DNA of 64,000 nt. Source: an uncultured Gammaproteobacteria bacterium (GTDB taxonomy: Bacteria > Pseudomonadota > Gammaproteobacteria > Steroidobacterales > BM003). The notes beneath the pieces were generated by a model, which searched no databases, was not told the DNA's origin, and worked only from the letters and a program-made list of their open reading frames with translations. Shown here in pieces: positions 14,864 to 18,817 of this stretch (positions are counted from its first letter, which is position 1; the number at the start of each line of letters is the position of its first letter). Both the position numbers and the translations under genes were made by a program. The stretch is taken from positions 33,744 to 97,743 of the forward strand of contig CAVOVJ010000012.1 in assembly GCA_963699835.1 (NCBI GenBank). The letters run 5' to 3'.

Positions 14864-15569
14864 GTGAGCGCAGAGTCCGGTGTAGCCACCGCAATGAACG
14901 TATCCGGCAAGAGTCAGTTGCCAGCCGACGAACGGCTGAAGATCAGCGAGATTTTCTACTCGCTTCAGGGCGAGGCTGCCAGCAGTGGCAAGCCAACCGT
15001 TTTCGTGCGGCTGACCGGTTGTCCGTTGCGCTGCACCTACTGCGATACCGAGTACGCATTTTTTGGCGGCGAATGGGTGAGTTTCGATGCCATTGTCGAG
15101 CGCATCAGGCGGCACGGAATCAACCGGGTTTGCGTCACGGGTGGGGAGCCCTTGGCGCAAAAGAACTGCATCGGGTTTTTGCACAGGCTGTGCGACGACG
15201 GTTTCGATGTCTCGATCGAAACCGCCGGTGCGCATGATGTCTCCGCGGTTGACGCCCGGGTTGTCCGGGTCGTGGATATAAAGACTCCGGGCTCTGGCGA
15301 GCATCACCGCAACCGCGGCGAAATCATTGCGGATCTTTGCGATCGGGATTTGCTCAAGTTTGTCATCTGCGATCGACGCGACTATGAATGGTCGCGCCAG
15401 CAGGTGGTCGACAAACGGCTGGATCAGGTGTGTGAGGTTCTGTTCTCGCCATCCTTCGGGCAGCAGGACCCAACTTCGCTTGGCGGAGTGGATCCTCGAG
15501 GACCGCTTGCCTGTGCGGTTGCAGCTGCAGTTGCACAAACAGCTTTGGGGTGAGGAAAAAGGCCGGTGA
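14864..15569 (+). pseudogene. queE: 7-carboxy-7-deazaguanine synthase QueE (radical SAM), frame broken by one extra base near 15461-15480 (true lesion or sequence error)
   Basis: IFYSLQGEA...VFVRLTGCPLRCTYCDT is in frame 2. The conserved C-terminus LAEWILEDRLPVRLQLQLHKQLWG is in frame 3. Span is 706 nt = 3n+1. The frame-3 stop overlaps the queC start (GTGA). Confidence 0.85.
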
Positions 15570-16249
15570 GCGATTTGCGTAATCCCGGGGCCGTGGTGCT
15601 GTTGTCGGGCGGGCTTGATTCGGCGACGCTCCTGGCGCTCGCCATGGAGCGCGGGTACGAATGCCACGCGCTGAGTTGCTTCTACGGTCAGAGGCATCAA
15701 TCGGAGTTGCGTGCGGCGGCGCGGGTGGCGCGGGCGCTTGGCGCAAGCGCGCACAAGGTAATGGGTATCGATCTGGCGGGGATGGGGGGGTCAGCGCTGA
15801 CCGATCCGGCGATTGCAGTGCCGGAGACGCCTGGCAGCGGGATCCCCGTTACCTATGTTCCGGCGCGTAATACGATCTTTCTTGCTCTTGCGCTGGGCTG
15901 GGCCGAAGTTCTCGGCGCCACCGATATTTTTATCGGTGTCAACGCGGTCGATTACTCCGGTTACCCGGACTGCCGGCCGGCGTTTATCGCAGCTTTTCAG
16001 AAATTGGCGGCGGTGGCCACCCGGGCGGGTCTCGCAGGGGATGGGGCGACGATTCATGCTCCACTGATCGAGCTCAGCAAGGAGGAGATTATCGGACTGG
16101 GGCGCAGCCTCGGGGTCGACTATGCGCTGACCGTTTCCTGCTATAACGCCGACGAGGAAGGTCGCGCATGTGGTAAATGCGACTCCTGCAGAATTCGGCG
16201 TGAGGGTTTTGCGGCAGCCCGAATCGCGGACCCGACCCGATACCGCTAG
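15566..16249 (+). CDS. queC: 7-cyano-7-deazaguanine synthase QueC
   Basis: PP-loop [12 protein letters not shown] and C-terminal zinc cysteines [17 protein letters not shown]. 227 aa. Confidence 0.95.
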
Positions 16250-16250
16250 C

Positions 16251-17324
16251 TCAGGAAAGCAGCCCGTCGTGCTGGTCTTGCGACCAGATCCGCCAGGTAA
16301 CCGCGGCGAGTAACGCGCCGACCGGCCCCAGAAGAATGCCAAAGTGGAGCAGCCCCTGGATCAGATCGCGCCGATCAAACAGCAAAAAAATCACTGCTAC
16401 GAGCAGTAATTGCAGCGCCCAGCCGGCCGCGGCGCTGCGCAGGGTTTCGCGACTCGGCCCTGCCAGCGTGCTGATAATCGCGCCGATCAGACCCCAGCAT
16501 AATGCAATCACCAGCGCTGCCACGCTGGTCGCGAGCGGCTCATAAGGCGGAAATTCACGTATTGCCGCATAGGCATAGGTCGTTGCATGGGTCGCGACGA
16601 ATCCGGCCGCCGCCGCGGCTGTCGCAACCTTAATCGCAACAGGCAGCAGATGGCGCACCGGTGCCGCCCAGTCATCCGCGTCATCGTTTTCGTCTGCTTC
16701 CGCCGCAGACTCATCCGCACCAGGTTCGGGCTCCGAATCCTCCTCGATCAAAATCGCCCGAGCGGATGTCTCCGGATCGACACTGCCCTGCGCCAGCAAG
16801 GCGTCGCGGCGCTCGTCGAGTTCTCGGGCAAGCCGCGCGCGATTGATTTCATTCAGTTGCGCTTCGATCCCGCGGACCAGTTGCTCCGTGTCGGGTCCGA
16901 AACCGACGTGGCTGATGCGGGCTCCATGGCGCCGTGCGAGCGCGCCCAGATCCTTGGGTAGTTCGTCTTCGCGCGGCGCATTTGCCCCTTCCACGAAAAC
17001 CGGAATGATAGGTATATTGCGCTTCAGTGCCGCGAGTATTTCCAGTCTCACATAGTCTTTCGGGTCGTCGAGTCGGCGCTGGCCCTTGGCGTCTTTTGCC
17101 GTTAGCCAGTCCGGACCGATCACGACCAGCATCAGGTCGCAGGCACTGACGGATTCCTCGATTTTCTCGACAAAATCGGTACCGAGCGGAATCGCATCGA
17201 TATCGAAAAAGATGTCTTTCTCATTGAATTTATCGCACAGCCGGTCATGGATGCGACCGGTTGCATGCGAGGCGTCCGCGCGTCGGTAGCTCAGAAAAAT
17301 GCGCCCACTCATCGTTGCGCCCAC
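16251..17324 (-). CDS. TIR domain protein with acidic linker and four C-terminal transmembrane helices
   Basis: N-terminal ~140 aa: IFLSYRRADASH..., DIFFDIDAIPLGTDF, CDLMLVVIGPDWL, conserved Glu in DYVRLEILAAL, IPIIPVFV (TIR_2-like pattern). Then EEDSEPEPGADESAAEADENDDADDW, then 4 hydrophobic helices. Start may be the ATG at 17312. Confidence 0.8.
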   Translation of the reverse strand: MGATMSGRIFLSYRRADASHATGRIHDRLCDKFNEKDIFFDIDAIPLGTDFVEKIEESVSACDLMLVVIGPDWLTAKDAKGQRRLDDPKDYVRLEILAALKRNIPIIPVFVEGANAPREDELPKDLGALARRHGARISHVGFGPDTEQLVRGIEAQLNEINRARLARELDERRDALLAQGSVDPETSARAILIEEDSEPEPGADESAAEADENDDADDWAAPVRHLLPVAIKVATAAAAAGFVATHATTYAYAAIREFPPYEPLATSVAALVIALCWGLIGAIISTLAGPSRETLRSAAAGWALQLLLVAVIFLLFDRRDLIQGLLHFGILLGPVGALLAAVTWRIWSQDQHDGLLS

Positions 17325-17770
17325 CGCTGCTGATTTCGCCGGCTAGTGGCCGCGCGACGGCCATCCAGTTCTGTCCCGTGGTCCCGATCACGCATGGAAT
17401 TCCGATTTCCCGTGCGGCCTGCATCTATTTGCGGGTTTAAAAATAAGCCCCAGGTCTATGTTTCGTAAAGCCCCGCGAACTGATTTCGGCGGAATGAACA
17501 GTACCCGGATACACTTTCTGATGTCTCAGGAATGAGTTTGCCTGGATTGCGAAAGGCGCCAAGCGACTGAATTTTTGGGTGAGTAGCGCTGGTGAGAATC
17601 GGTGCCGGCGACAGCGCGCCAGAGCTCAATCGCCACTATCGCGGCAGCGCGCCTACTCAGGCATAGCGCAATGCCGGACAATTCCGTAAAATGCCGCCCT
17701 CTTCCCTGAGAGAGGTGCCGGAATCGCGTTGTGACGCGCCGTATTCGGGTGCGAAGGGGACTTCCCCGGG

Positions 17771-17846
17771 GGGCCGTTAGCTCAGTTGGTAGAGCAGCTG
17801 GCTTTTAACCAGTTGGTCGTAGGTTCGAATCCTACACGGCCCACCA
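17771..17846 (+). tRNA. tRNA-Lys (anticodon UUU)
   Basis: 76-nt cloverleaf folded by hand. Acceptor GGGCCGT/ACGGCCC, D arm GCTC/GAGC, anticodon stem GCTGG/CCAGT with loop CTTTTAA, T arm GTAGG-TTCGAAT-CCTAC, encoded CCA. Confidence 0.95.
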
Positions 17847-18301
17847 TTTCTTAAATAAAAACAATAAATAAAAATGGTTTATTGAAGCTTATTCTCGATT
17901 ATACCGATCCGGATATCAAGGACCGTAAACGTAGCCAATGACGCGTTCGCCCGAGTGGCGCGCTCTACTCGAAAATGAACCTGGTCGGATTTTCCGGGCT
18001 GGTCCATGTCGGCACATCCCGGCGCAGGCCTCAGCGCGCCGGTGTTGGTCAACGAGGGGATGGCGACGGCGTAATTTTTGATACTCCGCCGTTTCGGTTC
18101 GCGATCAGATACTAAGATCGCGTAGACGCCAAGGCACTGCGTTGTTGCAGCTATCCGCCGGTTTGAGGTATCCGGGCCGGGCGGGCAGTTCAAGGTGAAG
18201 TCGCAAGCGTTACTCCACAAAGTCGGCTGGCGATCGACGCTTGCGGGGATCCCCGCAACCCACCGGCAATTGCGCAATCAGGCGCGGAACCGGCGGTGCA
18301 T

Positions 18302-18817
18302 TCAATGCTCGAGTGATATCGCGAAAAGCATGGGCCGTTCGTCTTCGAAATCCACGTCGGAGCAAAATTTCTTACCCAACTTTGTCGCGACGTTGACCGA
18401 CGCGTCATTGCCGTCGAGGATCAGCGCGGCGATTTTGTCGAGCCCGAGCGCTTCGCCCGCATGGGCGAGGTTCGCGGCACCGGCCTCGGTCGCATATCCC
18501 TTGCCCCAATGCCGCTCCTTGTAGCGGTAGCCGAGTTCGTCCATGCCAATTTGGGGCAGGTGCTTAATACCGCTGAATCCGATCACTTCGCCGGTGCTTT
18601 TCTATACCACTGCGAGGCGGCCATAGCCGTAATTTTCATAATCGGCGAACGTTGCTTCGCGCATGCAGCGACGCGCCTCTTTGAGATCGTGAAAGGGTTG
18701 CGGTTGCGCAAAACGGATGACATCCGGGTCGCTACCGAGTTCGTAAAAGTCCGCGCTATCGTTGGGAGTGAAGCGGTGCAACAGAAGACGTTCGGTTTCA
18801 ATCCCTGTCGCCGTCAT
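18302..18817 (-). pseudogene. GNAT (RimJ/RimL-like) N-acetyltransferase interrupted by an in-frame TAG at 18602-18604
   Basis: The two ORF-track pieces (18602-18880 and 18302-18586) are in the same frame. Read-through gives ...YGYGRLAVV*KSTGEVIGFSGIKHL...ELGYRYKERHWGKGYATEA. A Glu codon (GAG) would fit the family at the stop position. Confidence 0.75.

Follow-up and report, generated by a model that had tools for sequence, protein, structure and literature searches.

TIR domains that cleave nicotinamide adenine dinucleotide (NAD), i.e., TIR NADases, are frequent effectors of abortive infection, and TIR enzymes need TIR-TIR self-association to form their active site. The TIR domain of SARM1 is an NAD+ glycohydrolase and cyclase, and SARM1 is held at the mitochondrial outer membrane. 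According to a preprint, this domain branches within a mainly bacterial clade; the same source describes TirC of Dictyostelium, a TIR NADase of bacterial origin that is tethered by a transmembrane (TM) helix, the removal of which unleashes its toxicity (PMC13142454). In Escherichia coli, the TIR anti-phage systems TIR-I to TIR-IX include validated single-protein systems and a validated one that also possesses a TM domain, their activity depending on a conserved active-site residue of the TIR (PMC11350192). A three-gene defence consisting of a TIR protein and two TM proteins is described for the P2-like phage AC1 (PMC9122126). The gene treated here, TIR-4TM, encodes a TIR domain and four predicted TM helices in a single polypeptide. 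It is situated between queC and a tRNA-Lys gene in a stretch of 64,000 nucleotides (the window; contig CAVOVJ010000012.1 of assembly GCA_963699835.1, positions 33,744 to 97,743) from an uncultured gammaproteobacterium, and it had been put forward from the letters alone (the original prediction) as a candidate single-gene defence or membrane-signalling protein of undescribed type. What is new is that, in a narrow clade of Chromatiales, a SARM1-like TIR is fused to an orphan four-helix module; the superfamily itself is known.

TIR head, spacer and membrane module

TIR-4TM is a real, well-conserved gene of a small uncultured Chromatiales group. The open reading frame (ORF) list of the window contains it at 16251..17324 on the minus strand. 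The ATG at 17312 was taken as its start in place of the GTG at 17324, because all homologues open with MSGRIF, including a database protein of 353 amino acids (aa) that is identical to the window product (P0001), and because the upstream GTG is not kept in relatives. Judged from these homologues, the start is almost certainly the ATG at 17310-17312, with a protein of 353 aa, a coding sequence of 16251..17312 (minus strand, TGA stop at 16251-16253) and a leader of 458 bp. Residue numbers given here refer to the 353-aa version; adding four yields the 357-aa numbering of the original prediction. No paralogue of TIR-4TM exists in the window.

Residues 1-137 (16902..17312, minus strand) form a TIR domain, in agreement with the TIR_2-like pattern reported originally. 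Pfam TIR_2 (PF13676), the only Pfam family found in the protein above its cut-off, matches residues 9-123 (E = 2.2e-12, 48 bits versus a gathering score of 28). An AlphaFold2 run with a 104-sequence alignment gave a predicted local distance difference test score (pLDDT) above 90 for residues 1-170, and the TIR fold is confident. Among Foldseek matches in the PDB, the top 32 are all SARM1 or TIR-1 (E down to 4e-8; TM-score 0.83-0.86, normalised per target to isolated TIR-domain chains), whereas AbTir, SPARTA, BtpA and Bacillus ThsB follow only at E values of 2e-4 to 3e-3, i.e., 1,000 to 100,000 times worse. The flavodoxin-like alpha/beta fold of TIR domains is present, with a Foldseek probability of 1.00 to the TIR domains of SARM1, AbTir, RPS4, TLR and SPARTA. 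Concerning sequence, SARM1 and its orthologue from the nematode C. elegans, TIR-1, were the only PDB entries that the family profile matched (best E = 2.4e-16); a search with the single sequence likewise found only these two at E < 0.01 (best 8e-7). Identity to the SARM1 TIR amounts to about 26-28%.

The predicted catalytic glutamate is Glu91 (Glu95 in the 357-aa numbering), encoded at 17040..17042 on the minus strand (GAA, reading ttc on the plus strand). It aligns with the catalytic E642 of SARM1 (motif DyVRlEi, DWVHKEI in SARM1) and is invariant in the 104 aligned relatives, as are F35, D37, G44, G66, W69, R80, D86 and P119; the conserved Glu pointed out originally in DYVRLEILAAL is thereby confirmed. 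Further equivalences to SARM1 exist for S8-Y9-R10-R11 (S567-R570), D37 (D594), G44 (G601), Y87 (W638) and H135 (H685). Between strand C and helix C, an insert comprising residues 67-86 (PDWLTAKDAKGQRRLDDPKD; 17055..17114, minus strand) occupies, in a hidden Markov model alignment, the position of SARM1 residues 622-637. SARM1 is the nearest characterised TIR, and both share this insert as well as the SYRR, D and G motifs. By these sequence features the TIR head is of the SARM1 type with the catalytic Glu present, and it is presumably enzymatic, i.e., NAD-cleaving.

The helical linker and the four TM helices of the original prediction are recovered by the AlphaFold2 model and by four hydropathy peaks, and because the modelled helices match these peaks, the layout of TIR, helix, disordered part and four helices is considered correct. 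The helical stalk (residues 138-186; 16755..16901, minus strand) consists of modelled helices at 138-174 and 180-186, with pLDDT falling from about 95 to 77. It is followed by a disordered spacer (residues 187-216; 16665..16754, minus strand; pLDDT < 50 over 189-216), which is acidic in the source genome. In the orthologues its length and charge vary, the version of P0004 being Pro-rich and near-neutral, and no conserved cleavage motif is found in it among them. The acidic stretch that had been singled out is real in the source genome, but it is not conserved and, compared across orthologues, appears as a fast-evolving spacer and not as a conserved hallmark.

The four-helix membrane module (residues 217-353; 16254..16664, minus strand) is delimited by hydropathy, the AlphaFold2 model and conservation. 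Its helices TM1 (16560-16649), TM2 (16461-16538), TM3 (16380-16451) and TM4 (16275-16370), all on the minus strand, correspond to modelled helices at residues 222-251, 259-284, 288-311 and 315-346 (pLDDT 56-81), with which four Kyte-Doolittle peaks (1.86-2.39) coincide. There is no ectodomain, the helices being connected by short loops only. In the C-terminal 141 residues, which begin shortly before TM1, 71 of the 141 columns are invariant among four orthologues, and invariant polar or aromatic residues are situated within the helices (VRHLLP, ATH, PYE, CWG, GPS, AAAGW, FD, GLLHFG, GPVGA, W..W). A profile of the module found two matches among 1.84 billion representative proteins, both from the same clade; no Pfam family matches it consistently across the four orthologues, and hhalign comparison with the membrane parts of other TIR-TM proteins revealed no similarity (probability at most 13.5%). 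By these searches the module is an orphan confined to the clade. An identity with TspO/MBR was considered and rejected (E = 0.0025, below the cut-off, in one of the four orthologues), and no TspO protein appeared in the search of 1.84 billion proteins.

Selection differs strongly among these parts. The ratio of nonsynonymous to synonymous substitution rates (dN/dS) between TIR-4TM and four orthologues is 0.12-0.19 for the whole gene, 0.05-0.07 for the TIR domain, 0.18-0.44 for the stalk, 0.46-1.3 for the spacer and 0.10-0.25 for the membrane module. For comparison, it is 0.10-0.18 in queC and 0.07-0.09 in cpoB. TIR-4TM is under purifying selection comparable to that on queC, the TIR part being constrained even more tightly than queC, and the pattern therefore describes two constrained ends with a neutral tether between them.

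Relatives, distribution and surroundings

The nearest TIR relatives share 40-55% identity with the window protein, confined to the TIR domain; their C-terminal parts are very different. Of the 105 closest relatives retrieved, 85 have one or more predicted TM segments outside the TIR domain, a figure that stems from retrieval with the full-length query, which favours proteins sharing hydrophobic words. A query with the TIR alone yielded chiefly short fragments of matching length (TM segments in 7 of 30) and did not remove this bias. An N-terminal TIR followed by a single TM segment is found in 43 of the 105, 38 of them with a tail of at least 80 residues, and 28 possess three or more TM segments. 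The term undescribed type is therefore fair for the orphan membrane module but overstated for the architecture, since so many relatives also carry TM segments. The tails contain TPR, Sel1, PASTA, CHASE2, FGE-sulfatase, SH3_3, DUF1566 or IalB domains. Because several of these are typically extracytoplasmic, the TIR domain is placed in the cytoplasm, so that by analogy the window protein is assigned an N-in topology. As far as these sequences indicate, the pattern of the subfamily is a constant TIR effector head with variable membrane or sensor parts.

On long contigs, two TIR-TM relatives of greater distance are likewise solitary and lie in ordinary neighbourhoods. An IMG/VR contig (L138, 1650-6626) carries two adjoining TIR membrane proteins, one of 516 aa (TIR, one TM segment, Ala-rich coiled coil, IalB) and one of 373 aa (TIR and a multi-TM region), beside a terminase large subunit that is broken into two ORFs, which shows that relatives can occur close to phage-derived DNA. 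In L141 (3561-8966), a distant TIR-3TM relative (P0098) is divergent to an operon encoding a peptidoglycan-binding M15 peptidase, an unknown protein and a TPR-S/trypsin/LSDAT_prok (SLOG-type) protein. The LSDAT_prok domain is presumably a nucleotide sensor and could, in that organism, read nucleotides made by the TIR protein.

In the window, the gene order is tolB, pal, cpoB, queE and queC, then TIR-4TM in convergent orientation, 458 bp, tRNA-Lys(UUU), a GNAT gene and ThiF/ThiS/JAB genes. The slot is bounded on the left by queC (15566..16249, plus strand, TAG stop at 16247-16249; Pfam QueC in a syntenic locus) and on the right by tRNA-Lys(UUU) (17771..17846, plus strand; ARAGORN, Rfam tRNA 78.6 bits). 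The stops of queC and TIR-4TM are 1 nt apart, as noted originally, and this holds for every relative carrying the gene (including L001, L004, L005, L087, L088, L089 and L153). No terminator-like hairpin was detected between the two genes (16247-16253). The only terminator-like sites that were found are situated inside TIR-4TM, at 16389-16411 (minus strand) and 16944-16959 (plus strand), a count no higher than expected by chance, so that each of the convergent transcripts would need to terminate within the neighbouring gene. A functional link to queC was rejected, as the genes are convergent without a shared transcript and adjacency of queC and tRNA-Lys without the gene is normal elsewhere; the position next to queC is judged to be incidental.

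Concerning its distribution, TIR-4TM is absent from all of 80 other gamma- and betaproteobacterial species, in which tRNA-Lys usually follows 30-200 bp after queC. Close relatives were recovered by an unbiased CpoB scan of metagenomes and by a QueC protein search with contig look-ups; a contig scan with QueC, saturated by a universal motif, had brought up none of them. All contigs with CpoB identity of at least 82% that reach past queC carry the gene (L087, L088, L089), as do L001, L004 and L005, found through the TIR-4TM protein; in contigs with CpoB identity of at most 51% it is absent. At intermediate distance, it is present with the same geometry in L153 and L005 (QueC 78-79%, CpoB 77%) and absent from L145, L154 and L155 (QueC 82%, CpoB 75%). 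In the gene-less L145 lineage, queC is followed by 350 bp with the tRNA promoter block, by tRNA-Lys and then by DUF6916 and tail-collar cassettes. A neighbour-joining tree of QueC unites this lineage with L005 and L153 (66% bootstrap), and together they are sister to the main group (92%); CpoB of L153 and L145 is 78% identical.

The simplest history suggested by these sequences is a single ancient insertion with one or more subsequent losses, which is provisional because the tree uses one short protein. Given its narrow distribution and its absence from one nested lineage, TIR-4TM is regarded as accessory, not housekeeping; it is long retained, its synonymous divergence to the deepest lineage being saturated, and vertically inherited within a family-level clade. 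The lineage-specific insertion at the junction of queC and tRNA-Lys that had been suspected is borne out by this narrow distribution. Of the pattern named at the outset as speaking against the prediction, i.e., strictly vertical conservation with a housekeeping-like distribution, the vertical inheritance is found within the clade, but the distribution does not resemble that of a housekeeping gene.

In about ten gamma- and betaproteobacterial lineages (L013, L039, L046, L066, L085, L086, L043, L083, L082 and L068), the gap between queC and tRNA-Lys (1.2-2.2 kb) holds a co-oriented sulphur-transport gene of the YeeE/YedE type (360-440 aa; Pfam Sulf_transp E = 2e-59 in L013). The junction therefore accepts different cargo depending on the lineage.

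A genomic island at the tRNA gene was considered and rejected, as no repeat of the tRNA 3' end exists in the 64 kb and the downstream genes are syntenic in relatives. The decayed tRNA flank of the original prediction is not supported, in view of the same two observations and of the intact tRNA. TIR-4TM lies on the 5' side of tRNA-Lys, which is not where integrases place islands, and in GC content it resembles its flanks, with slightly lower values in the TIR half; considering also the missing repeat, it is not a recent island.

An AT-rich run (tttcttaaataaaaacaataaataaaaatggtttattg) is situated directly 3' of tRNA-Lys at 17847-17885, with a similar run in L145; it could be a processing signal, a termination signal or an old attachment-site remnant. 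The GNAT gene (18302-18817, minus strand) contains an in-frame TAG at 18602-18604 at a position where three relatives have Leu (LAVV*KS versus LAVVLKS/LAVILKQ), and both halves still match Pfam Acetyltransf_3. Compared at the level of translations, the stop probably goes back to a single-base change from TTG to TAG and represents a nonsense mutation of recent date, a pseudogene or an error in the assembly. In L145 (6413-8788) and L154 (4252-5581), tRNA-Lys is followed by DUF6916 and phage-tail-collar (PF07484) genes in repeated copies; a homologue of the GNAT gene was not detected in that region, which holds a different acetyltransferase-like gene (Acetyltransf_7, weak). As the region after the tRNA differs in the gene-less lineage, both tRNA flanks are variable within the clade.

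The leader between TIR-4TM and tRNA-Lys, originally given as 446 bp and ORF-free, indeed contains no ORF of at least 60 aa; besides its revised length of 458 bp, it differs from that description in holding two DNA blocks that are kept in all lineages while the remainder is divergent. The two blocks resemble a pair of promoters facing away from each other. Block A (17386..17472, minus strand) is conserved in all six aligned lineages and contains a candidate sigma-70 promoter on the same strand (-35 TTTACG at 17464-17469, an 18-nt spacer, -10 TATTTT at 17440-17445). Behind this promoter, the palindrome ATGGAATTCCG at 17394-17404 is kept in all six lineages, including the most divergent one. From this conservation, block A is read as the putative TIR-4TM promoter, and the palindrome may be an operator. 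In block B (17660..17703, plus strand), a -10 TAAAAT at 17687-17692 precedes a GC-rich discriminator, about 75 nt ahead of the tRNA. The gene-less lineage has retained this block (L145 spacer; blastn 83% over 42 nt), which is read as a candidate tRNA-Lys promoter. A consensus promoter scan called neither block. A riboswitch or leader RNA in the 458 bp was rejected, as Rfam found only the tRNA and the RNAalifold covariation term was unfavourable; the blocks are better seen as promoter and operator elements of the DNA than as RNA.

Possible modes of action

The best explanation of these features, to which we give about an even chance of being right, is a membrane-tethered latent NADase activated by self-association. 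As TIR enzymes need to self-associate, the membrane module would hold the heads apart at rest and then cluster them: In the resting state, stalk, spacer and four-helix bundle would keep the cytoplasmic SARM1-type heads separate; upon a change in the membrane or envelope, the module would bring the heads together, and the active heads would consume NAD+, possibly making ADP-ribose (ADPR) or cyclic ADPR (cADPR), until growth stops. The trigger might be phage attack or another envelope insult, and since the protein has no ectodomain, the signal is suggested to be read within the membrane. A conserved membrane module and a neutral spacer fit a protein with two functional ends and a tether between them. 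The enzymatic activity, the activation through clustering, the trigger and the outcome are what we infer from this arrangement.

Several points weigh against this explanation or against a role in phage defence. PADLOC yields partial, generic TIR matches (best ThsB, 26.6 bits over 73 residues), and NCBIfam gives ThcB4 at 38 bits versus a cut-off of 220, with no match at family level. A further PADLOC match, SAVED_TIR (E = 0.008), covers the TIR part only. No PHROG matches, a search of 50,697 phage genomes gave no hit, and a TIR relative (by the TIR alone) is found in 5 of 72,556 plasmids, all of them large and non-mobilisable. No defence island and no mobile element is recognisable in the surroundings, the neighbours being tol-pal, cpoB, queE, queC, tRNA-Lys, GNAT and ThiF/ThiS/JAB; as originally stated, there is no recognisable sensor or partner gene among them, the neighbours being housekeeping. 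The lineage-specific insertion and the absence from one nested lineage, on the other hand, would suit defence or mobile-element cargo. Long vertical retention at a housekeeping level of constraint is unusual for abortive-infection genes. In the literature searched, biochemical characterisation of any member of the subfamily was not found. For the membrane module, the search of 1.84 billion proteins yielded no homologue of known function, its modelled structure is of only moderate confidence, and the sensing or clustering role ascribed to it is purely inferential. The defence reading of the original prediction gained no positive evidence from any of these searches; by analogy with other TIR proteins, a phage-defence role is possible but unsupported.

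Instead of depleting NAD+ and thereby killing the cell, the TIR domain might make a nucleotide, e.g., a cADPR isomer or an ADPR conjugate, for an unlinked effector or for normal physiology. Many bacterial TIRs produce signals, with at least 11 types of Thoeris reported (10.64898/2025.12.03.692087), and ThsB and ThcB4 are the best, albeit weak, matches among defence models. Such a role would suit a gene whose retention and constraint resemble those of a physiological one, and the distant TIR-TM relative in L141 adjoins a SLOG-type (LSDAT_prok) gene. Sensor and effector genes of Thoeris are, however, normally adjacent, and the roughly 5 kb to the left and right of TIR-4TM contain no nucleotide-sensing gene (SLOG, Macro, SAVED, STING or other), neither in the window nor in syntenic relatives. 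As the TIR domain is, moreover, far closer to NAD-depleting SARM1 than to ThsB, we consider signal generation decidedly unlikely. The variable, disordered spacer of 30 residues between two conserved ends raises the idea of a mere anchor from which a host or phage protease cuts the head free, which would then self-assemble and deplete NAD+; the toxicity of Dictyostelium TirC once its TM helix is removed (PMC13142454) points the same way. A mere anchor needs neither 71 invariant positions out of 141 nor conserved His, Asp, Glu, Cys and Trp within its helices, though, and with no linked protease gene and no conserved cleavage motif in the spacer, such a release is very improbable.

The roles of the two ends might also be exchanged, the four-helix module acting as a toxic pore or membrane disruptor and the TIR as its sensor or activator, which would amount to a fused Thoeris-like pair. 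CBASS, Pycsar and Thoeris types II, V and VII commonly employ TM proteins as effectors, and a phage-borne system pairs a TIR protein with two TM proteins (PMC9122126). This arrangement is nevertheless highly doubtful: known TM effectors have a ligand-binding domain (Macro, SLATT-associated, DUF2270), where the window protein has just a helix and a disordered spacer, its module is unlike any known effector, and what follows the TM segments in relatives is often a domain of the periplasmic sensor type rather than an effector. That the TIR domain is no enzyme at all but organises a membrane complex by protein-protein interaction, as in animal TLR adaptors, would agree with the many TIR domains that are scaffolds, with the housekeeping context and with the lack of a known phenotype; scaffolding would not require that the catalytic Glu and the SARM1 NAD-site residues be invariant across 104 diverse relatives, and we hold it to be very unlikely.

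The membrane-tethered latent NADase can also be set in a wider frame. TIR-4TM might be the minimal member of a large and uncharacterised bacterial class of "inside-out Toll-like receptors", in which a constant cytoplasmic SARM1-type NADase head would be coupled across the membrane to swappable membrane or periplasmic sensors. Domesticated in this Chromatiales clade as a long-lived chromosomal gene, it would sense the membrane's own state, as it has no ectodomain, and convert envelope damage or stress into NAD+ collapse or a cADPR-type signal. It would then be a bacterial counterpart, and might represent a source lineage, of the injury-triggered NAD+ destruction known from SARM1, and not a classical phage defence. 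We offer this only tentatively and think it unlikely. Should TIR-4TM indeed be an active NADase under the control of its own membrane module, sensor and effector would be united very compactly in one chain without partner or ectodomain, and the protein would be a tractable bacterial model for the control of a SARM1-type TIR by a membrane tether. As an ordinary single-gene abortive-infection protein, it would extend an already long list of architectures by one.

Comparison with known systems

Among described proteins, the TIR head of TIR-4TM is most similar, both in sequence and in fold, to that of SARM1 and TIR-1, the nearest solved structures, with which it shares the SYRR motif, the BB-loop Asp and Gly, the catalytic Glu and the insert. 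Equally to the window protein, SARM1 is held at a membrane; the window protein is anchored by its own four-helix bundle. There are also differences: The order ARM-SAM-SAM-TIR of SARM1 orthologues is not found, as the window protein possesses neither ARM nor SAM domains and has its TIR at the N-terminus instead of the C-terminus, and the regulation of SARM1 by nicotinamide mononucleotide and NAD via the ARM domain cannot apply to it. TIR-4TM further draws attention to a sizeable set of membrane-bound TIR proteins that are annotated merely as "TIR domain-containing protein" and that bear on the origin of the enzymatic TIR of SARM1.

The protein is not a member of Thoeris, CBASS or Pycsar, nor of the SARM1 orthologues. 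With Thoeris it has in common a TIR and a membrane-spanning component (TM effectors in types II, V and VII), and the weak best matches are ThsB and ThcB4; however, no adjacent effector gene with a signal-binding domain exists at the window locus, and the TIR is of the SARM1 type and not of the ThsB type. Concerning CBASS and Pycsar, no nucleotide cyclase gene is situated in the neighbourhood, and the protein contains no SAVED, STING or cNMP-binding domain. The single-protein TIR systems of E. coli likewise consist of a TIR without a Thoeris-type effector, a likeness taken from their description; they occupy variable loci and have been shown to block phages, whereas TIR-4TM is fixed in a housekeeping neighbourhood and known from its sequence. 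In the validated system of phage AC1, TIR and TM proteins cooperate as products of separate genes in a phage hotspot, whereas here both parts are combined in one chromosomal polypeptide that is not linked to a phage.

TirC of Dictyostelium is alike in layout, combining an enzymatic TIR, a low-complexity linker and a membrane anchor, but differs from the window protein in its single N-terminal helix, its TIR of the TIR-STING type and its eukaryotic host. Finally, Toll-like and IL-1 receptors connect a cytoplasmic TIR through the membrane with a variable non-cytoplasmic part, as is found in the wider bacterial subfamily; in the window protein the order is reversed, with an N-terminal TIR that is presumably enzymatic and not a scaffold, and with no ectodomain behind the membrane module.

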